This document shows, one piece after another, positions 48,165 through 62,950 of a stretch of DNA of 64,000 bases. The notes beneath the pieces are model-generated. The model ran no database searches. It had not been told where the DNA came from and saw only the letters and a list, made by a program, of their open reading frames with translations. Within the stretch, counting starts at the first letter, position 1. Each line of letters begins with the position of its first letter. The stretch comes from Methanomassiliicoccales archaeon UBA147 (GTDB lineage Archaea > Thermoplasmatota > Thermoplasmata > SG8-5): contig DAJR01000049.1 in assembly GCA_002496385.1 (NCBI GenBank), forward strand, positions 198 through 64,197, in the 5' to 3' direction. A program made the position numbers and the translations under genes.

Positions 48165-49403
48165 TTGAATTACTTTCCTGTCGCAGTTCTGGGCATGGTC
48201 ATATTCCTCATTTCGATGAGGGGCCGGTGGAAGGGATACAAGATATGGCACGTCATGGCGCTGGGCGCGATGGCCGTGGTGTTCTCCGGTTATTTCTCCC
48301 CTATCCAGGCCCTTGAATCCGTGAACATCGACGTCATGCTTTTCCTTTTCGGGATGTTCGTGGTCGGCGAAGCCCTGGAGGAGAGCGGGTATCTTGGCCA
48401 GCTCACAAGCTGGCTGTACTGCCGGGGCCGCAGCGTGGACCATGTCGTCCTGCTGACCCTTTTCGGCATCGGGACTGCCTCGGCGATTCTCATGAACGAC
48501 ACGCTGGCCATAGTGGGAACACCCATCATGCTGTACCTTGCATCCAGGAACCGGGTTGATCACAAGCTTTTGCTCATCACGTTGGCTTTTGCCATCACCA
48601 TCGGCAGCGTCATGAGCCCGATAGGCAACCCGCAAAACCTTCTCATCGCGGTCGAAGGAGACGTGCACAACCCGTTCGTGACCTTCGCCGCATACCTCAT
48701 ACTGCCGACGCTCGTCAACCTTTTCATAGCCTATCTGTGGTTGAAGCTCCTGTTCAGAGAGGAATTCAAGAAACCCGCATCTGCAGAACCAACGGTGAAA
48801 ATAAAGGACGGGCGCCTGGCCTTATTGTGCAAGGTCTCCCTGGCATTGCTTTTCCTTTTAATTGCCCTGAAGATTGTCCTTGTGTCTGTGGGGGCCGGGA
48901 CGGACCTGAAGCTCACTTACATCGCACTTGTTTCAGCGGCGCCGATACTGATGTTCGCCCGCGGACGCGGCAAACTGCTTCGGAACATGGACTGGGGCAC
49001 CTTGATTTTCTTTGCGGCGATGTTCATCCTTACCGCGGCTGTGTGGGAGTCCGGGCTGATACAATCGGCGATATCCTACTTGGGTGTGGGCCTTCTCTCC
49101 GTCGCAGTCATCCTGGTTGTCAGCGTTGTTCTGAGCCAGGTGATGTCCAACGTTCCTCTTGTTGCCCTGTACCTGCCGATTCTGCTCAGTCTGGGCGCAT
49201 CGACAAAGGAGCTGATGACCCTGGCTGCGGGAAGCACCATCGCAGGGAATTTCCTCATCATCGGCGCAGCCAGCAACATAATCATCATCCAGAATGCCGA
49301 GAAGCACGGGAAGGCCGGGTTCGGCTTCCTGGAGTTCGCAAGGGTGGGCATCCCGCTGACAATCGTGAATATTCTGGTGTATTGGGTCTTTTTCAGCCTC
49401 TGA
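48165..49403 (+). CDS. ArsB/NhaD-superfamily (citrate-transporter-like) anion permease
   Basis: About 10-12 TM segments, with GSVMSPIGNPQNL and GNFLIIGAASNIII hairpin-like motifs typical of the superfamily. Confidence 0.75.
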   Translation: MNYFPVAVLGMVIFLISMRGRWKGYKIWHVMALGAMAVVFSGYFSPIQALESVNIDVMLFLFGMFVVGEALEESGYLGQLTSWLYCRGRSVDHVVLLTLFGIGTASAILMNDTLAIVGTPIMLYLASRNRVDHKLLLITLAFAITIGSVMSPIGNPQNLLIAVEGDVHNPFVTFAAYLILPTLVNLFIAYLWLKLLFREEFKKPASAEPTVKIKDGRLALLCKVSLALLFLLIALKIVLVSVGAGTDLKLTYIALVSAAPILMFARGRGKLLRNMDWGTLIFFAAMFILTAAVWESGLIQSAISYLGVGLLSVAVILVVSVVLSQVMSNVPLVALYLPILLSLGASTKELMTLAAGSTIAGNFLIIGAASNIIIIQNAEKHGKAGFGFLEFARVGIPLTIVNILVYWVFFSL

Positions 49404-49463
49404 CCCTTCATATTATAGAATAATATCATAATATATAATATACACAAAGTCATTTCTCGACGG

Positions 49464-49766
49464 ATGAGGCTTACGCGTCAGAGGACATGGATCCACAGGA
49501 ACGAGATGGTTGAGAGCATCGTCCTCGAGGACGGAGGAAAGATAAAATTCTACAGCCATACATACATGGGGCGTGCGCGGGGAAATGCCTGGATGCCATT
49601 CGTCAAGTGGGACAACTGGGACAGGCAGCCGCATGTGGACAAGTTCGACGGAAGCGGCGTGATGGTGGGCCAGGAAGCCTGCAACGAGAAGAGCCTGGAG
49701 GACGTTCTGAAACTGGTTCAGATATTCAGGAAAAATCTTCTAAGCATGGAGCTATCAAAACTGTGA
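49464..49766 (+). CDS. TumE-like (DUF6516-like) putative toxin
   Basis: The pattern KFYSH....FVKWDNWDRQPHVDKF......SLEDVLKLV resembles the DUF6516 RyDNapHh...sleevl pattern. It is paired with the HTH gene 8 nt downstream. Confidence 0.45.
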   Translation: MRLTRQRTWIHRNEMVESIVLEDGGKIKFYSHTYMGRARGNAWMPFVKWDNWDRQPHVDKFDGSGVMVGQEACNEKSLEDVLKLVQIFRKNLLSMELSKL

Positions 49767-49774
49767 GGGACGCC

Positions 49775-50215
49775 ATGAAAATCAGAATCACAAAACGGAG
49801 AAAATCGGCCGACATCGAAGGCCTTATGGCCGCATGGGAAAAGAAATACGGCTCACAGGTGTCGCTGCATCAGAAGCTGCTGATTTCCAAATGCACATCT
49901 CCGGAGCTTATGACCGATTATGTTCTGTGGAACAGCCTGTCCCAGGGCGCTGAATTCCAGGACATCATCGTGGTGAAGGACCCCGATATATTTGAAGTTT
50001 TGACTCCCAAACGGATGGAGATACTGGAACATCTCATGGGCAATGAGCCGGCGTCGATAAGATCCCTCGCTGGGGCCATTCACAGAAATTACAAGAACAC
50101 GTACGATGACCTTACAGCCCTCGCAAGGTATGGTTTGATCGACATTGTCCCGCGCGGCCGCTCTTCACGGCCTTCTGCGGCCGCATCGAAGATAGAGATC
50201 ACTTTTGACCCCTAA
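49775..50215 (+). CDS. HVO_A0114/TumA-like winged-helix DNA-binding protein
   Basis: VLTPKRMEILEHLMGNEPASIRSLAGAIHRNYKNTYDDLTALARYGLIDIVPRGRSSRP...IEITFD. The start was chosen at ATG 49775. Confidence 0.6.
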   Translation: MKIRITKRRKSADIEGLMAAWEKKYGSQVSLHQKLLISKCTSPELMTDYVLWNSLSQGAEFQDIIVVKDPDIFEVLTPKRMEILEHLMGNEPASIRSLAGAIHRNYKNTYDDLTALARYGLIDIVPRGRSSRPSAAASKIEITFDP

Positions 50216-50283
50216 TTTACTTTTCATACCATAATATCTTGAAAAATATACTGGCTCTTTAATTTACCTTTTATACCATATAT
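50214..50283 (+). promoter_or_regulatory. Pair of 23-25 bp direct repeats in the AT-rich leader of the 7-gene operon
   Basis: AATTTACTTTTCATACCATAATAT (50214-50238) and AATTTACCTTTTATACCATATAT (50261-50283). A TATA-like ATATATTTAAAC and a GAGGT SD follow before the ATG at 50368. Confidence 0.45.
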
Positions 50284-50367
50284 TTGATTAACCCCGAAAA
50301 AAGGATAAATTCTACGAAATATATTTAAACATGAAGAGATATTACTCGCACGTATAGAGGTAGGAAG

Positions 50368-50889
50368 ATGAAGGCTCAAAAATATGAGAATGTCGAGTTT
50401 GTGATAAACCACTCGGGCGACGAAGGCATAAAACTCAGCCTGATTTGGCGCAAAGGGGGCCTTTATCTGTCTCTGTCGGGTCTGTTCCTGACAGATGGAT
50501 CTACATGGTACGAACTTCCAGTCAAGGACCTGGAAAACATCACCGTGGTAAGCGATGAGCCCCTGAAACTGAGGCTGAAGATCCCGTCCCTTGACATAAT
50601 GGTCTCGGGCCAGCGCGCCGAACGGCTCCTTGCCCTGCGCCACTTCCTGCTCCCCTCTATATCTGGCGAAGGCGGCACAGACAAACTGAAATCGCTTCTG
50701 CGCTTCAGGGCGCTGGGCATTTCCGATCCCGAGCTCCTTTCGAAACTGCTGAACATCGATTCCCAGAATGTGGAGGACCTCACAGGGATTGCCAAGGAAA
50801 AAGGGCTCTTGGACTCTGACGGAAGGCTCACCGAAGCAGGAGATTCCCTGATTTTTGTTCCCGGTGAGAGGGAGGGGCGGCATGAATAA
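50368..50889 (+). CDS. Operon gene 1: hypothetical protein with a beta-rich N-terminal domain and a wHTH-like C-terminus
   Basis: 173 aa. The N-terminus VEFVINHSGDEGIKLSLIWRKGGLYLSLSGLFLTDGSTWYELPVKDL looks beta-rich (PH/GRAM-like is a guess). The C-terminus ISDPELLSKLLNIDSQNVEDLTGIAKEKGLLDSDGRLTEAG looks wHTH-like. SD-like GAGGT lies upstream. Confidence 0.6.
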   Translation: MKAQKYENVEFVINHSGDEGIKLSLIWRKGGLYLSLSGLFLTDGSTWYELPVKDLENITVVSDEPLKLRLKIPSLDIMVSGQRAERLLALRHFLLPSISGEGGTDKLKSLLRFRALGISDPELLSKLLNIDSQNVEDLTGIAKEKGLLDSDGRLTEAGDSLIFVPGEREGRHE

Positions 50890-51772
50890 CAAAGCCAACG
50901 AGTTCAGCAGCTTTGCCGAGACAATCGCCTCGCTCGGTACACTGACCAAACTCGAGTCAGCCGTGTCCGCCGCAATTAAAAGTTCAAGAGTGCCACCGAA
51001 GGAAACTCGGAAACTCCTCAAATGCCTGAGCGTGCAGGAGGCTGGCAACACCGCTCTGTTCCAATTCATGAGGGACCTTTTCAGCAAAGTGGGCGTCGGG
51101 GAGCTCGAAATCATAAAAAATGATATATTCCGGTACGATTTCGCAATCGAGAATTCGCCCGTATGCAAGCTCTACCCGCACGTGAAGAATAAGAAAACTT
51201 GCTACATAACCGCCGAGTCCCTGTCCCAGTTCTTCTCGAAGGACCTCAGTCTGCCCGGCACTGTCGAGGAAACAGCATGCCGCAATGCGGGCGATGCGCG
51301 ATGCGAGTTCGCGGTTTCCCTCCAGCCGCTTGCCGTTTACCAGTTGGCGCTGGACGATGTTGACAAGACCATAATCAGCAATGTCATGGAAGGGCAAAAC
51401 CGGGCGCGGATATCCGAGTCCCTGGAGATGGCCGACGATGAAGTTCTATTCAGGATGAATATCCTCAAAAGATACAAAATCCTAAATGACGATTACGAAA
51501 TGACCGAGATTGGCGAAACCTATCACAAGTACGGCGAGGGAATGGGCGGTGCGGAGGAGGACTTCCAGGCCCCGTGGAAGGATATGGCCATAATCTCAGA
51601 CGCCATTTCGGCGTCAACCTCCTTTGCAGAGGCCTTCACCGAGACGGCGAACGGCGAACCGCTCTGGGAAGTGAAGGAGAAGGACATAGTCAATCTGGCC
51701 GATGAGGCAAAAAAGAGCAAGAGTTTCGCCGAGTTACTGTCAAAACAGGTTAAGAGCGACATGGAGGAATAG
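50882..51772 (+). CDS. Operon gene 2: V4R-domain protein with a wHTH module
   Basis: V4R-like Cys pattern SPVCKLYPHVKNKKTCYITAESL...VEETACRNAGDARCEFAV, followed by IISNVMEGQNRARISESLEMADDEVLFRMNILKRYKIL. The ATG at 50882 overlaps the 3' end of gene 1 by 8 nt. Confidence 0.65.
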   Translation: MNNKANEFSSFAETIASLGTLTKLESAVSAAIKSSRVPPKETRKLLKCLSVQEAGNTALFQFMRDLFSKVGVGELEIIKNDIFRYDFAIENSPVCKLYPHVKNKKTCYITAESLSQFFSKDLSLPGTVEETACRNAGDARCEFAVSLQPLAVYQLALDDVDKTIISNVMEGQNRARISESLEMADDEVLFRMNILKRYKILNDDYEMTEIGETYHKYGEGMGGAEEDFQAPWKDMAIISDAISASTSFAEAFTETANGEPLWEVKEKDIVNLADEAKKSKSFAELLSKQVKSDMEE

Positions 51773-51774
51773 AT

Positions 51775-52650
51775 ATGGCAAGAATAAAGACCGGAATATT
51801 TGGGTTGGATCAACTCATTGAAGGCGGAGTGCGGGACAACACTGCAATAGTGATTGTGGGTTCCAGCGGTACAGGCAAAACTACGTTTGCAATGCAGTTT
51901 CTGATGCATGGGATAGAGAACGGAGAGCAGGGGCTTTACGTCACAATGGAGGAATCCCCTGAACAGCTGATGAAGGAAGCCGAGATGCTTGGCTGGGACA
52001 TGAAGAAGCATTTCGAGAAATCCCTATTCTTCATTCATCTCAAGGGCAAGAATTTCAAGAAGATGATAGACGAACAGATACCGCAGCTGGTAAAGGCCAG
52101 AAGCGACTATGACATCAAGACCCGTGTGGTAATCGACCCGATGACCCCGGTCATCTGGGCGACCGAAGACAAACTTCAGCAGAGAGAAATGATAGGAAAA
52201 CTCTTCTACACGCTAAAGGAACTGGGGGTCGTGATGGCCACAGTCGAAGAGCATTCCAGGCCGGGCGAGATAATCGGCGAGGACGTGCTATTGCCTGTTT
52301 ACCTGGCAGACGGGGCGATCAACCTTGAGTACTATCCCATAGGCGGAGCCTTCAACAGAACCCTGAAAATCATCAAGATGAGGGGGACCCATCACGGCGA
52401 GGGCGTCTATCCTTACATATTCGCAAGGGGCGCGGGCGCCATCATCCGCACGTCCCCGGCCGAGGCCATCAAGGCCGAGGATGGCCAGGATTTCAAGAAC
52501 GTGTTCGACGAGGCGATAAAGACCGCCGAATTCATAAAGGCGCCGGAGAGCGTGATATCCAAACTCAAGTACATGAAGGATACCTGGACATACAACTATT
52601 CGCCCGAGGAAGTGCTCCAGGTGATGTTCGACTCGTACGGACTCAAGTAA
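51775..52650 (+). CDS. Operon gene 3: single-domain KaiC-like / RecA-superfamily ATPase
   Basis: RIKTGIFGLDQLIEGGVRDNTAIVIVGSSGTGKTTFAMQF (Walker A), VVIDPM (Walker B) and KMRGTHHGEG. There is an extra C-terminal tail of about 60 aa. GGAGG lies 7 nt upstream, and the gap to gene 2 is 2 nt. Confidence 0.85.
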   Translation: MARIKTGIFGLDQLIEGGVRDNTAIVIVGSSGTGKTTFAMQFLMHGIENGEQGLYVTMEESPEQLMKEAEMLGWDMKKHFEKSLFFIHLKGKNFKKMIDEQIPQLVKARSDYDIKTRVVIDPMTPVIWATEDKLQQREMIGKLFYTLKELGVVMATVEEHSRPGEIIGEDVLLPVYLADGAINLEYYPIGGAFNRTLKIIKMRGTHHGEGVYPYIFARGAGAIIRTSPAEAIKAEDGQDFKNVFDEAIKTAEFIKAPESVISKLKYMKDTWTYNYSPEEVLQVMFDSYGLK

Positions 52651-52669
52651 AGCCTAATGGAGGGCTCCG

Positions 52670-53461
52670 ATGGTAGAGAAGAAGAAAATCGACAAGAGGA
52701 TGGAAGCCAAAACCGTGGTCCAGCTCAAGCACATGTTCGAGATGGAGCTCAAGAGAATCAAGGAGGACAATGGGATTGACATTCTCATGTTCGTGGGGAT
52801 AGACGGGCGCATCTTCGCATCTATCATACCGCCGATACTGAATCCCGTCCAGTTCAAATTCCTGAACCTTGTGAAAGGCAACCTTACCTTCGTCTGCAGC
52901 CAGCTCCAGGGCGACAACCTCAAGGTGAGCATCCAGCAATACGAGATCGGCACCGTCGTGATATCCGGCGTCGGCTCAAATTGCTTCCTCGCCTCGATAT
53001 TCTCCAAGCCGCTGTCAATCGACACGATGGGCCCGACGATCCATAATCTGATGAACGGGAGCATTGTCCTGAACCATCTGTTCGAGCAGCGCCCAATGGA
53101 CCCGGAACATCTGAAGGGATATGACAAGGCAGTGACCGACGAACTCTCCAAACTCACAAGGCAGCTGTTCGTCGAAAAATTCGACGAGACCCGGGAGTAC
53201 AAGCGTAACATGGAGCTCCTGAAGTTCCTGAAGCAGAAGATCGGCAGCGTCGTGGGGATTGGCGCTGTGGACGAGATAGTGACCGTTACCATGAACGAGA
53301 TGGGCACCAGCCCGGCGTACATGAAAGACAATGACTGGCTGAAATTCGTCGACCGCATCATCGAAGCCCACATCCGAGTCAAGGGCGGCGAAATAGTGGC
53401 CGAGGAATGCAAGAAGACATGGATTCCAGAGGTGGAGCGGAAACTCAAATCATTCGTTTGA
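52670..53461 (+). CDS. Operon gene 4: Roadblock/LC7 (MglB)-like N-terminal domain protein with a helical C-terminal half
   Basis: GIDILMFVGIDGRIFASIIPP...LKVSIQQYEIGTVVISGVGSNCFLASIFSK fits the Roadblock alpha-beta-alpha pattern by eye. GGAGGG lies 8 nt upstream. Confidence 0.6.
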   Translation: MVEKKKIDKRMEAKTVVQLKHMFEMELKRIKEDNGIDILMFVGIDGRIFASIIPPILNPVQFKFLNLVKGNLTFVCSQLQGDNLKVSIQQYEIGTVVISGVGSNCFLASIFSKPLSIDTMGPTIHNLMNGSIVLNHLFEQRPMDPEHLKGYDKAVTDELSKLTRQLFVEKFDETREYKRNMELLKFLKQKIGSVVGIGAVDEIVTVTMNEMGTSPAYMKDNDWLKFVDRIIEAHIRVKGGEIVAEECKKTWIPEVERKLKSFV

Positions 53462-53468
53462 TGCAGGG

Positions 53469-56093
53469 ATGGGAATGTCGAAGAAAAGCGAGAAAAAACC
53501 AAAGAGGAGTGCTAAGCCGGGCGCTAAGGCCAGCTCGGCGGAGAAATCCCCGAAGGAAGCACCCCTCCCCCCTGTCAAAATTCCCAAACCGAAGAAGCCT
53601 GGCATTTTTTGCGGGATATGCAACAAACCGATGAAGGATGAGAAGACCCGAAAGCTCCATGAAAGGCACTGCAAACCAAAGCCCGAAGCGCCCGCCAAAT
53701 CTGAGAAAGACCTTTTTGAATCGGCAATCGTGGAGTTGAAAGACAGATTCAACGACGAGGTCCAGTCGATGTCCAAAACCCTTCAGGAAAGGGAGGAGCA
53801 CCACCAAAGGGAGCTTGACGAGGTCCGGACGGTGCTCCGAATGGAGATTGACCATCACAGGAAGGAGCTGGAGAGGATCAGCAAGGTTGAAAAGGAGGTC
53901 GCCGCGGAAAAACTTTCACACCACGAGGAACCCCAAGCACATGAAGTGCCGCCCCCCTCCGAGCCTGTACCCATTGAACCTGAACCCCAGCCCACAGCCA
54001 GGGTGCCAGACGGCCGGCCCAAGGCGATAGACATGCTGCCTCTTCCGCTGCCCACCATTCCCAAGAAACGGTACCAACCGCTGCCCGAACAGGAATTCAT
54101 TCCTGATCTGGACCATGAGGAGGCTGCCCCGGTTCCCGCGGAAACGCATCACGGCCTCGAACGCGAAGAGGTGGAGGCGATGGTCCGCGACATTATGAAA
54201 ACCGCTCCGCAACCCGCCCCAACGGTCGGGAACATCGGCGGCATCGCCGAGAAGATTGAACGGCTGGACACAAGAATTGAAAAGAACGTCTCCGACCTCA
54301 GAAAGGCGATGGACCGCATCGCCAGCGATGACACATTAAAGAGGTTCGAGAAGGACCTGGCCCGGGTGACAGAGAGGGTCCAGGACATCATGGAGGACAG
54401 CGGATACGGCGAGAGCCTGAGCGTTGCAAAGATCCCCCCCACCATCCTCGAGATCGTTTACCAGGCGATACTGGATGACATCCACATCGAGATAATCAAG
54501 ACCAAAGGCCCCCAGGACGCGGAGCGCTTCGCAAGGAGCGCACTCGAGGAGGTCCGGCTGAAGACCAGCGGGAGCGAGCTATTCAAATTCGACGGCAGGA
54601 AGATTGTCACCGACAGCCTAGCCAGATCTATAGAGGCCAACCTGATATCCGCGAGACAGATACAGACGACCTACGATGTGCTGCTGGACAAGCTTCTCGA
54701 GACCGTCCCGCATTACAAGGCCAAGAATTTCAAAGGCATGATAAAGATCAAGAGCCAGGAATTCGCGGTGGACAAAGCCACGAAGCTGACCAAGGAGTTT
54801 CTGAGGTTCGAGAAGGTCATGGAGTCCACCAACCAGATGGTTGCGGCCATGGCAGCGAACTTCAACAGCCGGAATCTAGAACTTCACGAAACAGTGAACG
54901 AGATGAAGAACAACACCCTCGCCACCAAAGCCGACCGTGAGGAAATTGAGTCGCTCAGGTCAAAGGTCGAGGCGGCGAACGAGCGAATATCCGCTCTTTC
55001 CAATGAACTGTCGCTGCTGAAAGCTGAGTTGGAGATGAAGGAGCAGATGAAAACGCCCGACACCATTCAACCAGAGGGTGCAGAGGACATGATAATGGCT
55101 CCCGGCGAGATGCCTGGTGGCACAGAGGACGGCACGGCCGAGCCGGCATCGGATGCCCAGGCCGGCACCGAGGAGACAGACGAGAAGATAATCGAGGCAA
55201 TCCGTGGCGGTTCCGGGACCAAGACCGCCATAGTGAAGGCTACCGGCCTCGAAGAGCCTGAAGTCAAAGATGCCATCGCCCGCCTTGTGGAGCAGAGGAA
55301 GATAATCGAGAAAAAATCCGGGAAACGGTCGAAATACACGACTCTCGACAGGGAACTGGAGGAAAAATTGGTGGAATTCCCTGCAGAGGAACCCGGAAAG
55401 AAACCGAAGAAGGGCGGTAAAAAGCGGAAAGCGTCGGAAAGCGGAGATGAATTCGCAGAGCCAACTCCCATACCAGAACCCGAGCCTATCGCCCCGGCGA
55501 CCGAACCCGTTCCTCCCGGGCCCGCAATACAGGAGCAAGAGCCCGTACAGGTTGCACCCGATGAACCGCCCGAGCCAACACCCGAACCCGCCCCCGCCGA
55601 GCCCGAGATTCAGGAACCCGAGCCAAAGGAGCCTGTGGAGTCCAAACCCGCCAGAAAGGGGAAAAAGGGAAAGGGGTCCAAACCCCGAGCAATGATAGTG
55701 GAGCCGGTTGCGGAGCCGAAGGAACCAGAAATGCCCGAACCGTCCCCCGAGGAACCCGAACCACCCACCGCCGAACCAGTGGAGGAAAAAGCCCCAACGA
55801 CTACGGACATCGCAGATGATTTTCCGGTAATCCAAAAAGCGCTCGAGGACCTCTCGGAGGACGAGAAACGCGTCCTCGAGTCCCTGAGCGAGGACGGTAT
55901 GACCGTCTCCGGCATCCAGTCAAAGATCGGGAAGGACCTGAAGCGTTTCGCGCTTCTGCGCGCCCTCCGCGTCCTGATAGACTCTGGCCACGTGGGGATT
56001 CTGACCAAGGGGCGGCTTGAGCTGTATCAGAGAATCAATGTCCAAAAAACAGAAAAAAACGAAAGAGAGAAGAGCAAAAAGGAGGTGAAGTAA
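53469..56093 (+). CDS. Operon gene 5: 874-aa protein with a basic N-terminus, a C2H2/C2HC-spaced zinc finger, coiled coils, Pro/Glu-rich linkers and two wHTH-like modules
   Basis: CGICNKPMKDEKTRKLHERHC (aa 48-68). Heptad-like stretches such as REEIESLRSKVEAANERISALSNELSLLKAELEMKEQ. PEPEP low-complexity runs. wHTH-like EKIIEAIRGGSGTKTAIVKATGLEEPEVKDAIARLVEQRKI and EKRVLESLSEDGMTVSGIQSKIGKDLKRFALLRALRVLIDSGHV. Confidence 0.7.
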   Translation: MGMSKKSEKKPKRSAKPGAKASSAEKSPKEAPLPPVKIPKPKKPGIFCGICNKPMKDEKTRKLHERHCKPKPEAPAKSEKDLFESAIVELKDRFNDEVQSMSKTLQEREEHHQRELDEVRTVLRMEIDHHRKELERISKVEKEVAAEKLSHHEEPQAHEVPPPSEPVPIEPEPQPTARVPDGRPKAIDMLPLPLPTIPKKRYQPLPEQEFIPDLDHEEAAPVPAETHHGLEREEVEAMVRDIMKTAPQPAPTVGNIGGIAEKIERLDTRIEKNVSDLRKAMDRIASDDTLKRFEKDLARVTERVQDIMEDSGYGESLSVAKIPPTILEIVYQAILDDIHIEIIKTKGPQDAERFARSALEEVRLKTSGSELFKFDGRKIVTDSLARSIEANLISARQIQTTYDVLLDKLLETVPHYKAKNFKGMIKIKSQEFAVDKATKLTKEFLRFEKVMESTNQMVAAMAANFNSRNLELHETVNEMKNNTLATKADREEIESLRSKVEAANERISALSNELSLLKAELEMKEQMKTPDTIQPEGAEDMIMAPGEMPGGTEDGTAEPASDAQAGTEETDEKIIEAIRGGSGTKTAIVKATGLEEPEVKDAIARLVEQRKIIEKKSGKRSKYTTLDRELEEKLVEFPAEEPGKKPKKGGKKRKASESGDEFAEPTPIPEPEPIAPATEPVPPGPAIQEQEPVQVAPDEPPEPTPEPAPAEPEIQEPEPKEPVESKPARKGKKGKGSKPRAMIVEPVAEPKEPEMPEPSPEEPEPPTAEPVEEKAPTTTDIADDFPVIQKALEDLSEDEKRVLESLSEDGMTVSGIQSKIGKDLKRFALLRALRVLIDSGHVGILTKGRLELYQRINVQKTEKNEREKSKKEVK

Positions 56094-56726
56094 TTGCTCG
56101 ATGTAGCATTGGTCTCGCTCATTCAGGATATGAGCGAGAAGGCTGGTGTCGAAGGCACCATCCAATACTGGGCTAGAGTAGGTGAAAGCCTGGCCAAGAG
56201 AATGGGAAAGGAAGCGTACATGGGCTGGCCTTCTTTCAACGTAGCGTTGAGAGAGGGGCGGACCGCCTTCTCGATAGAGGGAAGCGTAACGGCCTTGACC
56301 GATCTGGCCATAACGGACGTCGACGGCGATGTGGTGGGGTACATTTATGCCCTGGAGACCTGCGTGTTCAATCCCACGATTGTGAGGATAAGGTACAGCG
56401 TGGGCGAACTTCCGCGCGCAGACAGCGCAGTAGCCGAGGAGTACAACAACAGCGTGCGCGACACGGCGGTCTGCAATTTCTGCGTCATCCACCAGAGATT
56501 CAGAGAAGAGGTGGCGAAGAACATATCGATAGCGGACCAGAGCCTTGACTGCGTGCAGCTGGCGAACAGAGGATTCTCCGGCGAAACGAAGATAACCGAG
56601 GATGCGCTGAAGAAGATAGGCATCAACCCCGAGTACGTCCGAAGCTTGCTGAGGAACTATGCCTGCGTGTATGCGATAATGATGCGCGGCGCAAGGCTCA
56701 GAGGCGAAGCGGAGGATTCCAAGTAG
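56094..56726 (+). CDS. Operon gene 6: Cys-containing protein of unknown family, paralog of gene 7
   Basis: The TTG start directly abuts the gene 5 stop codon and has GGAGGTG 7 nt upstream. An ATG at 56130 is the alternative. Shares AEEYNNSV, CVIHQRFR and LLRN blocks with gene 7. Confidence 0.6.
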   Translation: MLDVALVSLIQDMSEKAGVEGTIQYWARVGESLAKRMGKEAYMGWPSFNVALREGRTAFSIEGSVTALTDLAITDVDGDVVGYIYALETCVFNPTIVRIRYSVGELPRADSAVAEEYNNSVRDTAVCNFCVIHQRFREEVAKNISIADQSLDCVQLANRGFSGETKITEDALKKIGINPEYVRSLLRNYACVYAIMMRGARLRGEAEDSK

Positions 56727-56731
56727 GAGGC

Positions 56732-57352
56732 ATGAACATGAGCGAAAGACGAAAATTTCTGATAGACGACAACCCGTTCGTGGACGTGGCCGCCTGCCTG
56801 TTCCTCGAGGACATCGCCGACAAGCAGGGCGCCAGCGGAATGAACAATTACCTTGTGAGCCTGGCGACGTCGCTTGCCAAGAGCATGCCGGAAGAGGAAT
56901 ACCGCACCTGGGACCAGTTCCTTGATTCCCTCGTGAAGGGCGAATCCATCATCTCTGCGTTCGAGGACGTGATAACCATCACGCCCCACTGCGCGGTGAC
57001 CACCAAATGCCCGTTCACAAAGGGATGGCAGGAGTACACCAAGAGGATTGGCACATTCTCGAAGATACACGCCGATGTGGCGGAGTATTACAACTCTGTC
57101 TACAAGCCCGGCACCATCAACTCGATGTGCATCATCCACCAGACGTTCAGGAACGCAGCAGCCGACCGCATAAAGGTCGCGGGCAAGCCCCTGAAGATAG
57201 GCCAGATCGCGGCGGTGTGGGAAGACGGCAACAGGAAGATCGCGCCGGACGAATGGATGCCCATCCTGCTGGAGAAGGCACAGATATCCCGCACGGACCT
57301 GAACATGATACTCAGGAACAACGCCGATGTCTGGGTAATGTACACCGACTGA
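56732..57352 (+). CDS. Operon gene 7: Cys-containing protein of unknown family, paralog of gene 6
   Basis: AGGAGG lies 5 nt upstream of the ATG. Motifs HCAVTTKCPFTKGW, AEYYNSV, CIIHQTFR and ILRN. Confidence 0.65.
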   Translation: MNMSERRKFLIDDNPFVDVAACLFLEDIADKQGASGMNNYLVSLATSLAKSMPEEEYRTWDQFLDSLVKGESIISAFEDVITITPHCAVTTKCPFTKGWQEYTKRIGTFSKIHADVAEYYNSVYKPGTINSMCIIHQTFRNAAADRIKVAGKPLKIGQIAAVWEDGNRKIAPDEWMPILLEKAQISRTDLNMILRNNADVWVMYTD

Positions 57353-57368
57353 ACGCCAAAACACCAAT

Positions 57369-57424
57369 GCCGCCTGTCAGCAGGCGGCCCAAAGGCTGAA
57401 CGCATCCGCGTTCAGCCTGTTTTA
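57369..57424 (+). terminator. Two tandem perfect hairpins ending the 7-gene operon, the second followed by a T-run
   Basis: GCCGCCTG-tcag-CAGGCGGC (57369-57388) and AGGCTGAACGC-atcc-GCGTTCAGCCT (57393-57418), followed by GTTTT. Confidence 0.6.
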
Positions 57425-57441
57425 CATCATAGCCAGCCGGA

Positions 57442-58014
57442 TTGCCCCAAGGTGAAACGTTGCAGGAACTAGCCAAATCCTCGGACCTGATATTCTACAA
57501 GCTCGAAGACGCATCAGAGGTAAATAAATTCAGGATACTGGGCATGGAGGACGGGAGGTTCTCGGGCGGCGGGTTCGAGTTCTTCAGGGGCCTGGGCATA
57601 ATCGGCTACGAGAAGACCTTCAAGATATGGCTGAGGAAATTTCCCAGGCCGATATTCATCATCGCGGTGAAGAGCAACGACATAGTTTCCTGGGTGTTCC
57701 TGGAGGAGTGGGAGGGGACTGCCAACGACGGCATGGCCATTTGGGTGCTGCGGGCCATAGAGACCCTGCCCTCGATGAGGAAGAAGAAGATGGGCTACAA
57801 GCTTCTCCTGCTCAGCGCCCAGCAATGCGTCGGGTATCTGGTCACGAAGCCCCTGACGCCCGAAGCCAGCAAGTTCTTCAGGGATGCGGGATTCATGGAG
57901 CCGGCGGAATTCAAGAAGCCGCCTTTCGACCTGTCCAGGCATCCGGGGTATCTGATTATCCCGCCCTACAAGAAGGCCAAGCTCCTGGAGCAGTTCGGGG
58001 AGCATTTCAGATAG
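57442..58014 (+). CDS. GNAT-fold-like hypothetical protein
   Basis: IWVLRAIETLPSMRKKKMGYKLLLLSAQQCVGYLVTKPLTPEASKFFRDAGF resembles the acetyl-CoA-binding core. The start codon is TTG, so the start is uncertain. Confidence 0.5.
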   Translation: MPQGETLQELAKSSDLIFYKLEDASEVNKFRILGMEDGRFSGGGFEFFRGLGIIGYEKTFKIWLRKFPRPIFIIAVKSNDIVSWVFLEEWEGTANDGMAIWVLRAIETLPSMRKKKMGYKLLLLSAQQCVGYLVTKPLTPEASKFFRDAGFMEPAEFKKPPFDLSRHPGYLIIPPYKKAKLLEQFGEHFR

Positions 58015-58157
58015 TATCTCCATCCAACCCCTGAGGGGATTTGGAATTTTTCGGTATCCAAACGCGGTTTGGAACGGAAGCTGGGTGCCGTGGTGAAGTC
58101 AATGGTTAGGCCCAATTTGTCGGATTGGAGGAGATGGTATTCGGCGAGAATCCACGC

Positions 58158-59009
58158 TTAATTCTTCTTTCCCAAGCGCTTAACTTTTTCAGGGGTATCG
58201 AGATAATTCTCATCGCTGACAATGCCTTTTCCTGTTTCGGCCTCCAAATCCAGTCTTGCATCGCCGGAGATTTTCCCCCCCTTCCTGGCGGCATCTTTGT
58301 TTTCTACAAATCCTTGGGCGTCCTTGGTCCGGGCTATCTCGGTGGTGGCTGCCTCTCCCAGCATCGTGAAAATCAGTTCCAGGTCGTTCATGTGGTCCCT
58401 GAGGTTCTGTCTCTTCAGACCTTTGTGGGCCAGGTATTCGCTCGGGGTTAGACCGAATGCGGCTTTGGAGATTTCAGCGGTGAGAATGGAAAATTCTATG
58501 TTCGTTTCGATTCCGCGTTTGTCCCATTCATCAGTTAATTCATCTCTGACGGCGATTCCCCTCAATCTTTTTTCGATCCATGCATCGGAATACCCCTTGA
58601 CACGGTACAGTTCCTTCATGCGCTTCTGAGCAAGTTCTGGATTTTCAATCTCCTGGACGCGCTCGTACCCAACTTTGGCCAGCCATTGTTTGAATGGTTC
58701 GGCTTTGGGGGAAGGGATAGACTGAATCAACCTGAATAGGGTCTCGGTGTTTGCGCAGTCAGTCAACCGCAACTTCCCATCCTCGGCAATTAATTTCAAC
58801 CGGTTACAATTTGTAACGGTTTCATCACCCCCTTCCTGGCTTAATCTGTGCTTGAGAACCTTCCAGTAATTTCCTGGGTCTTGGCTTTCTGAAAGAATGC
58901 CCACCACATCCACCACGGAGTACCACCATTCTTCCCCCTGCCATATCCTGCGGATGCCCTTGCCCTGGAAAACGACCATTGCGTGTTCTCTGCCCTGCTC
59001 TTCCATCAT
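58158..59009 (-). CDS. Bro-N domain / DinD-like (DNA-damage-inducible protein D family) protein
   Basis: The N-terminus VVFQGKGIRRIWQGEEWWYSVVDVVGILSES is Bro-N-like. The C-terminus LAHKGLKRQNLRDHMNDLELIFTMLGEAATTEIAR...KGGKISGDAR resembles the E. coli DinD C-terminal half. Confidence 0.7.
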   Translation of the reverse strand: MMEEQGREHAMVVFQGKGIRRIWQGEEWWYSVVDVVGILSESQDPGNYWKVLKHRLSQEGGDETVTNCNRLKLIAEDGKLRLTDCANTETLFRLIQSIPSPKAEPFKQWLAKVGYERVQEIENPELAQKRMKELYRVKGYSDAWIEKRLRGIAVRDELTDEWDKRGIETNIEFSILTAEISKAAFGLTPSEYLAHKGLKRQNLRDHMNDLELIFTMLGEAATTEIARTKDAQGFVENKDAARKGGKISGDARLDLEAETGKGIVSDENYLDTPEKVKRLGKKN

Positions 59010-59204
59010 GAACTAACAGAATGTCGAAATGGTATATAAGATTGAAGAAGAGATGGGTGAAAGTATTTATCGGTATCCAAACCCCGAAGAATATTTGATA
59101 TTTTATATCCATTCGAATCGATGCCTCAGGACTGAAACCTGGTGCTGATCTGTGAGAGTCGAGTTGCATACCGGTTCAACCACCCCCAATTCAAAATCCT
59201 TATA

Positions 59205-59618
59205 ATGTCAATCTCCCTATCTGTTCTGGGAAATATGTGGGAATGGGCAGAAACCCCTTCGAGGGAAAAGAAGGAAAAACTGGATGAATTGAACCGCCAA
59301 TACCCCCTAATCAACAAGACACTAGGGTTGATTGTTGCGGTATGGGCGGTGGGGTGTTTCTCCCTTACCGTTTCTATTTATGTCCTCATGTTTCATTGGG
59401 AGATTATCGATTTTTCTAGTGTAATCTATGCGTATTTTTGTTGCCTGTACGGTCTTTCTATTTTGATATGGATAGCCGAATACAGGAACATCCATCGCGA
59501 GTACTATGAAAAAGTGTATGATATTATCGGAACGCCGCCATTTCTGAGGCAACGGAAGGGCATGTACCTAATGTTCGTCTGCCTGGCGATATTAACATAC
59601 GCGTTCATTGTATTTTAA
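59205..59618 (+). CDS. Small hypothetical membrane protein (3-4 TM)
   Basis: Hydrophobic segments LGLIVAVWAVGCFSLTVSIYVLMF, VIYAYFCCLYGLSILIWIA and MYLMFVCLAILTYAFIVF in an AT-rich context. No recognisable family. Confidence 0.4.
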   Translation: MSISLSVLGNMWEWAETPSREKKEKLDELNRQYPLINKTLGLIVAVWAVGCFSLTVSIYVLMFHWEIIDFSSVIYAYFCCLYGLSILIWIAEYRNIHREYYEKVYDIIGTPPFLRQRKGMYLMFVCLAILTYAFIVF

Positions 59619-59674
59619 AAATAAAAATTTGCCAGCCCACAAAGAGCTGGCATTATCGTGTTCAGGCATGCCGC

Positions 59675-60607
59675 TTAAAACATCCCCAGTATCTCGGCGC
59701 CGTACTTCTGCGCACTGGCCTCGCCTATCCCGTATATGCCCTGGAGGTCCTCCAGGGTTTTCGGGTCCCGACTGGCTATCTCGGCGAGCGTCTTGTTCTT
59801 CAGGACGCAGTACCTGGGCTGGCCTATCTCCGCGGATTTCCTGTCGCGCCACTCTTTCAGTACCGCCTTGCGCCTCTCGACCTCCGAGATGTCCAGTTTG
59901 GACTCTGCCTCGACCGGGACGTCTCCGCCGGCAAGGACGTCCAGGCCCTTGCTGGTGACGACCAGGACAGGGAATTCCGAGTCCTCGACATATGCGAGGT
60001 AGTTCTCCTGGATGAGCCAATCGACAAGGCTCAGCACTTCCTTCATGCTGGTCTCCTTTGCCACGCCGTAGGTGCCCAGCTTGGAGATGTTGATTGTCAG
60101 GATCTTCTTCGAAACGGAACCTGTCAGCACCCTTGCGATGGTCGTCCGGCCGTAGTTCCCGCCGAGGTCGAACACACACTTGAGTATGGACATTGCCAGG
60201 CTGTTGGTCTGGCCGCCCGAGGGCACGCCCTGCATCGCCATGAGCTCGGTGAACTGGAGGGTGAGCTGCTGCCCGTCCTCCGTGGTCGCGAAGAACTCCA
60301 GTTCGGCGTCAGCCATGTTCCTTGCCAGGCTGATCTCGGCCCCGCCGTCGATGTAACACAGGGGGCGCACGCCGTTGCTCAGGTTGTGCACTATCACGGT
60401 GCCGTCCGGCCTTGCCGAGACAAGCACCTTGGCCTGGAATTCCTTCGTGACTGATGCATTGGCATATGTGCCTTTGCAATCGCCCACCAGGATGATGTTC
60501 TGCAGGTTCATTTCCTGCGTTTCGTTCTTTTTGCTGTTTGTTTCCGTTTTTGCGGTTTGTGTTTTCATTATTTCACTTCTGCATTCCGTTGTTTTCTTTG
60601 AATGCAA
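59675..60607 (-). CDS. Helicase-less protein with a NucS-N-terminal-like domain, an RQC-like winged helix and an HRDC domain
   Basis: IILVGDCKGTYANASVT...VSARPDGTVIVHNLSNGVRPLCYIDGG resembles the NucS N-terminal half-barrel. ILKCVFDLGGNYGRTTIARVLTGS...LVDWLIQENYL is RQC/WH-like. LKEWRDRKSAEIGQPRYCVLKNKTLAEIASRDPKTLEDLQGIYGIGEASAQKYG is HRDC-like. The start is uncertain (TTG at 60607 or ATG at 60568). Confidence 0.6.
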   Translation of the reverse strand: MHSKKTTECRSEIMKTQTAKTETNSKKNETQEMNLQNIILVGDCKGTYANASVTKEFQAKVLVSARPDGTVIVHNLSNGVRPLCYIDGGAEISLARNMADAELEFFATTEDGQQLTLQFTELMAMQGVPSGGQTNSLAMSILKCVFDLGGNYGRTTIARVLTGSVSKKILTINISKLGTYGVAKETSMKEVLSLVDWLIQENYLAYVEDSEFPVLVVTSKGLDVLAGGDVPVEAESKLDISEVERRKAVLKEWRDRKSAEIGQPRYCVLKNKTLAEIASRDPKTLEDLQGIYGIGEASAQKYGAEILGMF

Positions 60608-60806
60608 TAGGGTGATTCTGCCCTCAGTATATATAAAAAATTAATACATGTAACGTACAGTAGCAAAATAATGGAGAAAACAACGTGCAGAAGTGCATTT
60701 AACGGAGGCCACCCTCCCCGTTCACACACAAAAGAATGAAGAAAAGCCTTCTGTGCAAGAGCACCTACATCGGGGCGCCTGGGTGATGTTGGTGATGGGC
60801 GCCATA

Positions 60807-61053
60807 CCCGGCCCTCAGCGCCGAATTGTGTGCAATTCGGCTTGCTCGGATTGATGTTTACAGAATGCTTCTGAGCTACAATCCTCGTACAGGCGGGGTT
60901 TGAAGGGAGAAATGTGCGCTGTGCATCACAATAGCCAGATTTTCAAAACCTGGCATTATCACCCCGGCCTCAGCGCCGAATTGTGTGCAATTCGGCTTGC
61001 TCGGATTGATGTTCACAAAATGCTTCTGAGCCACAATCCTCGTACAGCCGGGG
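60807..61053. repeat. Two tandem copies of a 92-bp structured repeat (period 155 bp)
   Basis: Copy 1 spans 60807-60898 and copy 2 spans 60962-61053, with roughly 90 percent identity by eye. Each contains the hairpin GCCGAATT-gtgtgc-AATTCGGC and a GGATTG...CAATCC stem. Confidence 0.8.
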
Positions 61054-61124
61054 CATGGGGGTTGGGCGGGGTGCCTTGGTGAAGTCCCGGGAGACGAAAA
61101 GCGGGAGATTAAGGAATGCAATCT

Positions 61125-61394
61125 CTAAGCCTGGCATTTAGCAAGCTCTTCTGGAAGCCAGCAATTCGAATAATCCGAAATGTCAAATGAATAGTATGCA
61201 ATTCGATAAGTAATGCTGTCAACCCCTAAATTCGACCAATCAATTCTCAGCATCTGAACGTAGAGTAAGTTGTCAGATTGCCCATTATCCAAAATATAAT
61301 CGTAGTATGTAATATGGGGATTAATCGGCACTTTGTAAGTGACATTTAGTAAAATTGGATATGTAAGATTGGTTGCGATGTATCTTTGAAACAC
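61125..61394 (-). CDS. Hypothetical 89-aa ORF (GTG start), possibly the 3' part of a gene split by a frameshift
   Basis: AT-rich, Tyr/Asn/Ile-rich, with no recognised motif. It overlaps the 3' end of the RHH-like ORF in another frame (see findings). Confidence 0.3.
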   Translation of the reverse strand: MFQRYIATNLTYPILLNVTYKVPINPHITYYDYILDNGQSDNLLYVQMLRIDWSNLGVDSITYRIAYYSFDISDYSNCWLPEELAKCQA

Positions 61395-61522
61395 TTCGTT
61401 GATAGTAACATTTTTTTCAGGTTGGAAGGCGAGATTCCCTTCTTCTGGCAGTAGTCCTTGAACTTCACCGACTCCAGACGGGGGATGCGGGCGGATAGCA
61501 CCGTGAAACTTTCGAGTCCCAT
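61346..61522 (-). CDS. Ribbon-helix-helix-like small ORF (58 aa), absent from the ORF track
   Basis: Manual translation: MGLESFTVLSARIPRLESVKFKDYCQKKGISPSNLKKMLLSTKCFKDTSQPILHIQFY. The first 37 aa or so fit a CopG/RHH strand-helix-helix pattern. Confidence 0.35.
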   Translation of the reverse strand: MGLESFTVLSARIPRLESVKFKDYCQKKGISPSNLKKMLLSTKCFKDTSQPILHIQFY

Positions 61523-61658
61523 GCTAAACAGGAATGCTTCGGAAGTTTATATACTTTCTTTGTCTACTGCATAGACAACTTAACCGACGATGGTGAAATC
61601 GCATCTGGCTGGATCTGTTTCAGGCAGAACCCGACCGATAAATCGCCAATTCACCTAT

Positions 61659-62861: not shown

Positions 62862-62950
62862 AATTATTACTCCGTCATGCTAAGCATAAAGGTGCAGATA
62901 TATAACCATTCAACAGGGGTGGGCGAAAGTATTTCGTCTAATCTGGATAA

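Follow-up and report, generated by a model that had tools for sequence, protein, structure and literature searches.

Related systems

Roadblock-fold proteins and the related longin proteins are regulators of small GTPases in several systems, including MglA-MglB, Ragulator-Rag, TRAPP and the bacterial conservons CvnA-D. They are documented as regulators of GTPases and not of RecA-type ATPases. KaiC-like ATPases of archaea have been proposed as signal transduction hubs, in which the ATPase reportedly shares operons with putative input and output domains such as V4R and wHTH (Makarova, Galperin and Koonin 2017; cited in PMC5847659), an arrangement also seen for the single-domain KaiC-family ATPase described here. 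A further set of proteins of one fold class comprises V4R, TRAPPC3 (Bet3), the PoxR/MopR sensors and BcsD, and Asgard archaea encode zinc-binding TRAPPC3/V4R proteins of this class (Tran et al. 2024; PMC10933270). Here, a gene cluster from the Methanomassiliicoccales archaeon UBA147 (contig DAJR01000049.1, analyzed as a 64-kb window) is described that teams a KaiC-type ATPase with a Roadblock protein and a pair of previously undescribed cysteine-site proteins, parts that other prokaryotes, including Asgard archaea, combine with small GTPases. The cluster is uncharacterized and conserved across many Thermoplasmatota archaea. No library or text that could be searched names this composition, the ten-gene cluster, its Roadblock-helical partner or the paralogous pair, though a prior listing of the neighborhood among archaeal KaiC loci cannot be excluded.

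Gene content and organization

Seven co-directional ORFs (g1 to g7; 50368-57352, forward strand) form a tightly packed operon, with junctions of -8, 2, 19, 7, 0 and 5 nt, and the initial annotation of this arrangement is confirmed. GGAGG-like ribosome sites precede g2, g3, g4, g6 and g7, GAGGTAGGAAG precedes g1, and the site before g5 is weak. The AT-rich leader (50216-50367) holds two direct repeats, TTTAC-N5-ATACCATA (50216-50233 and 50263-50280), which are the only two matches in the window against 0.04 expected, followed by a conserved CTGG and a BRE/TATA element, CGAAA-TATATTTAAA (50315-50329). Two stem-loops (57369-57388 and 57393-57418), followed by GTTTT (feature 57369-57424), are a probable operon terminator or processing site; folding gives a dG of -37.7 kcal/mol (z = -5.3), and the stems are kept through compensatory changes in related loci.

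The domain inventory first proposed, namely KaiC, V4R, Roadblock, wHTH modules and a paralogue pair of unknown family, is largely correct. The first gene, g1 (50368-50889; 173 aa), combines a beta-rich N-domain, PH-like on its sequence pattern alone, with a C-terminal wHTH that scores 26.4 bits against Pfam wHTH-PRTase_assc, just under the cut-off of 27; its profile also hits a MarR wHTH weakly. The V4R protein g2 (50882-51772; 296 aa) scores 37.2 bits against a Pfam cut-off of 31 and matches the V4R of MsvR (E 1.5e-7). It has three invariant cysteines (C107, C133 and C141), a wHTH-like middle and three conserved SFAE motifs (residues 10, 247 and 281). The ATPase g3 (51775-52650; 291 aa) is a single-domain KaiC/RecA-like protein (Pfam KaiC, 164.7 bits) with a roughly 65-aa C-terminal helical tail. 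Its Walker A (GSSGTGKT), catalytic glutamates (EE59-60) and Walker B (VVID) are intact. These features are shared with the archaellum ATPase ArlH and cyanobacterial KaiC. However, g3 scores only 51 bits against the ArlH model (cut-off 215) and 127 against KaiC_arch_3 (cut-off 249), it lacks the double-domain architecture of the clock KaiC, and no archaellum, KaiA or KaiB genes were found in or near the cluster.

The Roadblock domain of g4 (52670-53461; 263 aa) was not detected by Pfam in the window protein, but is confirmed by its predicted structure. The AlphaFold2 model (pLDDT 85.8) has a Roadblock/LC7/MglB-fold N-half (residues 16-138) and a helical-bundle C-half, and Foldseek matched it to MglB, Asgard Roadblock proteins, Rag C-terminal domains and LAMTOR (E 1e-5; target-normalized TM about 0.7). 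The scaffold-like protein g5 (53469-56093; 874 aa) contains a C2H2/C2HC-like zinc finger (C48, C51, H64 and C68), coiled coils, a conserved globular core of no known family (residues ~296-450), a wHTH (~570-625), PE-rich linkers and a second wHTH (~800-860), with the zinc finger and wHTH resting on weak profile hits only. Its orthologues range from 397 to 943 aa, and only the core and the first wHTH are universally kept. The last two genes, g6 (56094-56726; 210 aa, TTG start) and g7 (56732-57352; 206 aa), are paralogues (BLASTP 28% identity, E 5e-21; hhalign probability 99.7%, E 5e-26).

Three further genes belong to the conserved unit. Upstream lie u1 (49464-49766, forward strand), encoding a 100-aa TumE/DUF7718-like protein, and u2 (49775-50215, forward strand), encoding a 146-aa winged-helix protein of the HVO_A0114 family (Pfam, 74.4 bits). 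The window u1 protein itself has no hit, but 15 of 18 orthologues match DUF7718 (best E 6e-8) and 10 of 18 match TumE. Downstream lies d1 (57460-58014, forward strand), a divergent 184-aa GNAT acetyltransferase; 13 of 14 orthologues match Acetyltransf_1 (best E 2e-7), and its profile hits the GNAT structures 1wwz and 2q04. Its start is the TTG at 57460 rather than 57442; the start codon and the ribosome site AAGGTGA are conserved. In 32 other genomes, an HDAC-type deacetylase is also part of the cluster.

Conservation across Thermoplasmatota

The cluster is collinear and single in 80 species-level genomes of several Thermoplasmatota lineages, while the genes flanking it are not conserved. In the 54 loci with enough upstream sequence, g3, g4, g6 and g7 are present in 54, d1 in 52 (and in 73 of 77 loci), g5 in 51, g2 in 50, u1 and u2 in 44 and g1 in 36. 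The invariant core is g3, g4, g6 and g7, with g5, g2 and g1 dispensable in some lineages, and a minimal KaiC-g4-g6-g7 form occurs in two loci (L082 and L085). The g3 protein is 56-96% identical across loci and the core as a whole 56-99%.

This distribution bears on the interpretation offered in the initial annotation, which is only partly supported: the operon and most of its domains hold, but the suggestion that a conflict or mobile-element role is as plausible as signalling is not supported. An antiphage, toxin-antitoxin-linked or mobile-element system might be suggested by the resemblance of u1 and u2 to the TumE-TumA family (Durairaj et al. 2023; PMC10584680), in which a TumE-like gene is likewise followed by a wHTH gene, and by the Bro-N, RQC/HRDC and DUF1016 genes in lower-GC DNA downstream of 58 kb. 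However, PADLOC returned only noise-level hits, and no relatives were found on 2.9 million viral contigs of IMG/VR or among viral structure models. The upstream pair, originally read as a toxin-antitoxin-like neighbor, is instead fixed in synteny with the HDAC gene and the KaiC operon across orders, and the variable genes start only after d1. Nor was the proposed location in an accessory, AT-richer region confirmed, with a GC content of 0.541 for the cluster against 0.552 for the window; only the leader and the region after 58015 (0.499) are AT-richer. A defense or mobile-element role is thus considered very unlikely.

A cysteine-site protein family linked to Roadblock genes

The g6 and g7 proteins define a small family absent from Pfam, with 70 representatives detected among 1.84 billion, that keeps a C...C..H...C pattern. 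No Pfam, NCBIfam or PDB sequence match was found for g6, which has invariant C90, C127, C130, H133 and C191, is 66-99% identical across orders and has a mean column identity of 82%. The AlphaFold2 model of g7 (pLDDT 91.3) is a two-layer alpha/beta fold whose best structural neighbors by Foldseek are BcsD/AxCeSD (E 0.013), PoxR/MopR/DmpR (E 0.14 and above) and Bet3-Trs33 (E about 1). This is the fold class reported for the zinc-binding Asgard TRAPPC3/V4R proteins, and g6 has four invariant cysteines, like the zinc site of Thor-TRAPPC3 (PMC10933270). The match is nevertheless weak, with TM-scores of only 0.34-0.58 and extra secondary-structure elements, and profile comparison of g6/g7 with V4R, including that of g2, gave no link (hhalign probability below 1%).

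Distant members of the family provide further context. In locus L091, a paralogue pair lies between two Roadblock genes, followed by a Ras-like GTPase gene. In a Hodarchaeota operon (L094/L100), the order is Ras GTPase, Roadblock, MetOD1, Roadblock, g6/7-like, two unknown genes and Roadblock. Roadblock genes also lie next to the family member in loci L090, L096 and L098, and the g4 profile detects the Roadblock genes beside distant g6/g7-like genes. One protein, P0306, is a fusion of KaiC with a g6/7-like domain, though this rests on a single 1.9-kb metagenome contig. In contrast, two distant contexts (L087 and L088) lack both Roadblock and an NTPase.

The strong conservation of g6 is unusual for a signalling accessory, and could point to an enzymatic or structural role. 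In this alternative, g6/g7 would be a metalloprotein or enzyme, for example a cofactor or Fe-S carrier or a redox protein, with loading or turnover driven by the KaiC ATPase and Roadblock as an assembly factor, making the cluster metabolic rather than regulatory. The four invariant cysteines of g6, including a CxxC, together with His133, the Cys/His pattern kept across the whole family and a level of identity typical of enzymes or core machinery favor this reading. However, g7 keeps only one invariant cysteine, the four-Cys zinc site in the related fold class is structural (PMC10933270), and the neighbors of the family elsewhere are signalling parts (Roadblock, Ras-like GTPases, PatA_N, PAS kinase and response regulator) rather than metabolic genes. 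This possibility is regarded as unlikely.

The Roadblock and TRAPPC3/V4R-like parts list of the core, and the use of Ras-like GTPases by sister operons, also raise the possibility of a polarity, envelope or membrane-remodelling regulator analogous to MglA-MglB or TRAPP/Ragulator, acting on cell shape, motility or surface structures rather than transcription. No membrane, pilus, archaellum or division genes are conserved next to the cluster, however, and none of its proteins shows membrane-protein features in the translations. The many wHTH domains and the operator instead point to DNA-linked output, and such a role appears unlikely.

Regulatory elements and possible DNA-linked functions

An operator pair, TTAC-N5-RYACCATA, is conserved across orders, with about 62 sites seen in 54 loci against 0.46 expected. 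The motif co-occurs with u2 (38/6 against 2/8; Fisher p 1e-4), also when this gene is divergent or relocated, and u2 is the probable regulator of the operon, with its binding inferred. The operator lies in front of the KaiC operon, which also sets u1 and u2 apart from described TumE-TumA pairs.

The cluster encodes four or five wHTH modules (u2, g1, g2 and two in g5), long coiled coils and a zinc finger, and weak hits to Sso10a, ASRP and DEK_C-type DNA binders were obtained. With GNAT and HDAC genes flanking it, and a level of conservation that fits a housekeeping role, it could encode a nucleoid or chromatin organizing (or DNA-partitioning) machine, in which g5 and the other wHTH proteins bind DNA, the RecA-superfamily ATPase drives remodelling and the flanking enzymes modify chromatin proteins. 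However, all DNA-binder hits lie below family cut-offs, and g5 is the least conserved protein (27-64% identity), is absent from the minimal clusters and has its zinc finger in fewer than half of orthologues. The invariant core has no recognizable DNA-binding domain. This remains a possible but unlikely alternative.

A putative Roadblock-regulated KaiC switch

This chromosomal, vertically inherited Thermoplasmatota cluster most likely encodes a multi-subunit nucleotide-dependent switch built around g3, an explanation held with no more than even confidence. The analysis itself establishes gene order and co-conservation, the domain and fold assignments, the intact ATPase motifs, the conserved Cys/His pattern, operator conservation and the linkage of the g6/g7 family to Roadblock genes and NTPases elsewhere, whereas all protein-protein contacts, regulation of the ATPase, metal and DNA binding, the sensed signal and the physiological output are inferred. 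As in MglA-MglB and related systems, a Roadblock-fold subunit is encoded next to a P-loop NTPase and, in TRAPP-like fashion, comes with a pair of paralogous alpha/beta proteins, though their link to TRAPPC3 is at weak fold level only. The NTPase here is a RecA-superfamily KaiC ATPase rather than a Ras-like GTPase, g4 carries an extra helical-bundle half and no GAP or GEF activity is known for any component.

In the proposed mechanism, g4, probably a dimer as Roadblock proteins are, would bind the ATPase and tune ATP turnover or nucleotide state, as MglB, Ragulator and longin dimers do for small GTPases. The paralogues g6 and g7 would form a hetero-oligomer with a Cys/His metal site and a V4R/TRAPPC3-like ligand-binding fold, acting as the sensing or partner-recruiting subunit. 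The V4R protein g2, with its three docking-type SFAE motifs, g1 and the long coiled-coil g5 would be lineage-variable input, scaffold and DNA-binding output parts. Transcription would proceed from the conserved BRE/TATA promoter, governed by the two operators, which are probably bound by u2 together with its TumE-like partner u1, while the flanking GNAT acetyltransferase and, in most other genomes, HDAC-type deacetylase suggest control by reversible lysine acetylation. On this reading, the cluster would encode a Roadblock-regulated NTPase switch complex in which KaiC takes the place of the GTPase.

Architecture of the operon and its surroundings

The seven ORFs described in the initial annotation (g1 to g7) exist with exactly the spacing reported there (-8, 2, 19, 7, 0 and 5 nt), and the observation of a tightly packed operon is therefore confirmed. 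GGAGG-type ribosome sites precede g1-g4, g6 and g7, whereas the site before g5 is weak. The 152-nt leader carries two copies of TTTAC-N5-ATACCATA, 47 bp apart, which are the only two matches in the window against 0.04 expected. Two perfect stem-loops (dG -37.7 kcal/mol, z = -5.3) follow g7 and are themselves followed by GTTTT, while an Rfam search of positions 49000-58500 returned no RNA family. The interpretation placed on the operon was only partly supported. The claim that it lies in an AT-richer accessory region is wrong, given that the GC content of the cluster (0.541) is the same as the window background (0.552) and only the DNA after 58 kb is lower (0.499).

This lower-GC variable region (58015-64000) starts right after the cluster and encodes a Bro-N protein (58158-59009, minus strand), a small membrane-like ORF (59142-59618), an RQC+HRDC protein with a NucS-like N-terminus (59675-60607, minus strand) and, further on, a DUF1016/YhcG-type gene. 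No tRNA gene is found anywhere in the window. Elsewhere in the window, a 1932-aa ORF (36497-42295, minus strand) has a Peptidase_S8 (subtilase) domain according to the gene call on the matching metagenome contig (L002). The initial annotation considered a conflict or mobile-element function as plausible as a signalling role. However, no cluster component significantly matches a defence-system model of PADLOC-DB, the best hits being at E 1e-5 to 1e-3 to generic P-loop or wHTH parts, no g6 relative is encoded on IMG/VR viral contigs, and none is found in a viral structure library, leaving a defence system or mobile element a very unlikely reading.

Protein families and predicted folds

The ATPase g3 is a member of the KaiC family, with a KaiC/RecA-like domain scoring 164.7 bits against a Pfam gathering threshold of 26.6 (PF06745; residues 4-224) and an intact Walker A motif (GSSGTGKT at residue 29), catalytic Glu pair (EE at 59-60) and Walker B motif (VVID at 118-121). 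It is distinct from the cyanobacterial clock KaiC, which has duplicated CI and CII domains (about 500 aa) and KaiA and KaiB partners: g3 is a single-domain protein of 291 aa, scores 132 bits against a cut-off of 408 for PRK09302, and no KaiA or KaiB domains are found in the cluster. Assignment to the archaellum protein ArlH is likewise not supported, with an NCBIfam equivalog score of 51.4 bits against a cut-off of 215 and no Arl genes in the 20-kb neighbourhoods; g3 also fails the KaiC_arch_3 equivalog cut-off. The adjacent g2 (50882-51772) is a V4R protein (37.2 bits against a gathering threshold of 31) in which C107, C133 and C141 are invariant in 24 orthologues. Three copies of a short SFAE(A/L) motif are conserved across g2 orthologues, at the N-terminus, after the wHTH-like region and at the C-terminus (residues 10, 247 and 281); they resemble docking peptides, and no other cluster protein has the motif.

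Structure models were obtained for two proteins, g4 and g7. Residues 16-138 of g4 are predicted to adopt a Roadblock/LC7/MglB fold, followed by a helical bundle. The AlphaFold2 model (pLDDT 86) has the alpha-beta-beta-alpha-beta-beta-beta(-alpha) order of secondary structure, and Foldseek retrieves MglB, Asgard Roadblock proteins, Rag C-terminal domains and LAMTOR at E 1e-5 to 1e-3 (probability 1.0, target-normalised TM 0.6-0.73). The assignment rests on this model: the window protein has no Pfam hit, two of 30 orthologues match Robl_LC7 at E 0.003, and the g4 profile hits three Roadblock-fold PDB chains at only E 0.27-2.3, though JGI names some homologues Roadblock/LC7/MglB.

The proteins g6 and g7 are paralogues (BLASTP E 5e-21; hhalign 99.7%) without a Pfam or NCBIfam family. 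The g7 model (pLDDT 91) has only weak structural neighbours, none reaching E 0.001, namely BcsD/AxCeSD (E 0.013-0.1; target-normalised TM 0.5-0.58), PoxR/MopR/DmpR sensor domains (PoxR E 0.14) and Bet3-Trs33 (E 0.97); this same fold class has been described for zinc-binding Asgard TRAPPC3/V4R proteins (Tran et al. 2024; PMC10933270). No sequence-profile link of g6 or g7 to V4R was detected, with hhalign against the g2 V4R alignment giving a probability of 0.2-0.3%. The residues of a putative metal site are present in g6, in which C90, C127, C130, H133 and C191 are invariant, and the family keeps a C..C..H..C pattern, whereas g7 keeps only C87 as invariant. It is possible, but doubtful, that the cluster is instead a metalloprotein or cofactor system.

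The remaining operon proteins are less well defined. An unverified beta-rich N-domain and a weak wHTH match are seen in g1, whereas g5 is a variable scaffold-like protein, 397-943 aa long in orthologues, in which only a globular core (residues ~296-450, no known family) and one wHTH are universally kept; the zinc finger occurs in fewer than half of orthologues. Comparison of the g5 core with g4 and g2 by hhalign found no relationship. Profile searches of the PDB were uninformative for g6, u1 (the first gene of the pair upstream of the operon), the g5 core and g1, with best results of DEK_C at E 0.15 for the g5 core and MarR at E 0.15 for g1. A chromatin or nucleoid machine is considered an unlikely alternative identity for the cluster.

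Conservation across Thermoplasmatota

All g7 homologues are unnamed proteins of Thermoplasmata MAGs. A genome scan returned 80 species-level loci, from UBA280-like "Methanomassiliicoccales", Proteinoplasmatales SG8-5, DHVE2/Aciduliprofundum, Saliniplasma and others, in which tblastn shows the whole cluster to be collinear. In the 54 loci with enough upstream sequence, g3, g4, g6 and g7 occur in 54, the downstream gene d1 in 52, g5 in 51, g2 in 50, the upstream genes u1 and u2 in 44, and g1 in 36. Two genomes keep only KaiC-g4-g6-g7. As genes were detected by tblastn on MAG contigs, apparent absence of g1, u1 or u2 may sometimes reflect divergence rather than loss. Identities to the window proteins are 66-99% for g6, 56-96% for KaiC, 58-99% for g7 and 27-64% for g5 (from the initial tblastn comparison and, for loci L015 onward, from the survey of the 54 loci), with a mean column identity of 82% for g6. 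Genes outside the u1 to d1 interval are not conserved beyond the closest relatives.

The conserved unit extends beyond the seven genes. The upstream pair, which the initial annotation described as toxin-antitoxin-like, is part of it: 15 of 18 u1 orthologues match DUF7718 and 10 of 18 match TumE, though the window protein itself has no hit, and u2 is an HVO_A0114 wHTH protein (74 bits). The pair does not behave as an autonomous, patchily distributed addiction module, being kept next to the KaiC operon in 44 of 54 loci across orders. Downstream, d1 is also part of the unit, with a TTG start at 57460 and a conserved AAGGTGA ribosome site. It is a putative divergent GNAT acetyltransferase: 13 of 14 orthologues match Acetyltransf_1 (best E 2e-7) although the window protein does not, and the profile hits the GNAT structures 1wwz (E 0.006) and 2q04.

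In 32 loci (L019:1204-2277 and 31 others), an HDAC-family deacetylase (Pfam 286 bits) sits directly upstream of u1; this arrangement is found in most lineages but not in the window's clade, and the window has only a 36%-identical paralogue about 35 kb away (14790-15494, minus strand). A Translin-family gene lies further upstream in 13 loci. In 15 loci (L030:11936-18451, minus strand, and 14 others), a protein of about 2170 aa with an STT3/PMT_2 glycosyltransferase N-terminus and CarboxypepD_reg repeats is encoded convergently downstream of d1, a gene absent from the window.

Regulatory sequences

Alignment of leaders from relatives shows footprints for the two repeats, a CTGG, and a BRE/TATA element (CGAAA-TATATTTAAA, 50315-50329). 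The motif TTAC-N5-RYACCATA occurs about 62 times in the 54 loci, against 0.46 expected, and almost always lies between u2 and g1/g2, including where u1-u2 are divergently oriented. In locus L068 (CP070629; 9173-9244 and 12875-12953), HDAC-u1-u2 has moved together to a position downstream of d1 and the operator pair has moved with it, while a second, inverted pair of operator motifs lies just upstream of g6, suggesting an internal regulated promoter there. Motif presence correlates with u2 presence (38/6 against 2/8, Fisher p 1e-4), though the loci are phylogenetically related and this p-value overstates their independence. The most likely candidate for the operator-binding regulator is therefore u2. 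The second hairpin after g7 is kept as a structure through compensatory changes, which supports an operon end at about 57420.

The g6/g7 family outside Thermoplasmatota

An exhaustive HMMER search of 1.84 billion representatives gave only 70 hits to the g6/g7 family, including a distant group of about 190-208 aa that keeps a C...C..H...C pattern. One 428-aa protein (P0306; L092:29-1315, JGI metagenome 3300056901) fuses a KaiC ATPase domain (Pfam 137 bits) to a g6/g7-like domain, though it is known only from a single 1.9-kb contig and an assembly or frameshift artefact is not excluded. A second protein, P0307, is a 492-aa Hodarchaeota protein whose neighbour is a TrmB-wHTH + Ras GTPase.

Distant members frequently, but not universally, lie beside Roadblock genes. 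Locus L091 encodes, in order, a Roadblock protein, a paralogue pair (205 and 208 aa), a Roadblock protein and a Ras/Arf-like GTPase. In Ca. Hodarchaeota (L100:4836-8760, GCA_048887365.1; same operon in L094 and L095), an operon encodes a Ras/Arf-like GTPase, Roadblock, MetOD1 (V4R-like), Roadblock, a g6/7-like protein, a 115-aa and a 171-aa unknown protein, and Roadblock; for another Asgard archaeon, GTPases were reported generally not to share operons with Roadblock or TRAPPC3 genes (PMC10933270). Three Roadblock genes surround the family member in L096, and a Roadblock or PatA_N-Roadblock gene is adjacent in the bacterial loci L090 and L098, whereas the Nitrospirota-type contexts L087 and L088 show neither Roadblock nor NTPase. 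The g4 profile detects these neighbouring Roadblock proteins at E 1.7e-6 to 1e-3. The recurrent module is therefore an NTPase, Roadblock and g6/7-like protein(s), often with a V4R-type protein, and in Thermoplasmatota the NTPase is KaiC. A role as a polarity or membrane regulator is possible but unlikely.

Proposed function and significance

The most likely interpretation, held with roughly even confidence, is that the cluster encodes a Roadblock-regulated nucleotide switch complex centred on KaiC. In this view, a g6/g7 hetero-oligomer would be the metal-site sensor or adaptor, and the V4R-wHTH protein, the beta-domain-wHTH protein and the coiled-coil scaffold would be variable input and output parts, with the operon under a dedicated operator and regulator and with acetylation enzymes attached. 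Whereas gene order, conservation and sequence motifs are observed directly, all contacts and the output of the system are inferred, as are control of a nucleotide cycle by g4, metal binding by g6/g7 and operator binding by u2. The general idea of KaiC hubs is published (Makarova et al. 2017), but no named system with this composition was found in Pfam, NCBIfam, PADLOC or the searchable literature, a search that did not extend to published KaiC neighbourhood tables or arCOG assignments. Read in this way, the cluster is a module of an NTPase with a Roadblock regulator, a known kind of module, in which the NTPase is a KaiC ATPase, and it includes an undescribed protein family.

A more speculative reading, considered unlikely on present evidence though not excluded, is that the invariant core (the predicted Roadblock protein plus a heterodimer of TRAPPC3/V4R-class paralogues) is a prokaryotic counterpart of the TRAPP/Ragulator type of NTPase-regulator assembly, re-wired in Thermoplasmatota from a Ras-like GTPase to a KaiC ATPase. 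The GTPase-linked sister operon in Hodarchaeota would then be a rare operon-encoded, directly testable precursor of eukaryotic GTPase-regulator complexes.

For Asgard archaea, matching regulators to NTPases from gene order was reported to be difficult (PMC10933270), and the cluster connects to the open question of how TRAPP/Ragulator-like GTPase regulators arose. Archaeal KaiC-like ATPases are abundant but, apart from ArlH and GvpD, have essentially no assigned partners. The cluster supplies a fixed, phylum-wide set of putative partners that can be reconstituted, comprising the Roadblock protein, the paralogue pair, the V4R-wHTH protein, the scaffold, and a probable dedicated regulator and operator. 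It also defines a protein family missing from current domain libraries, which, as inferred from gene context, ties Roadblock-based regulation to two unrelated NTPase classes.
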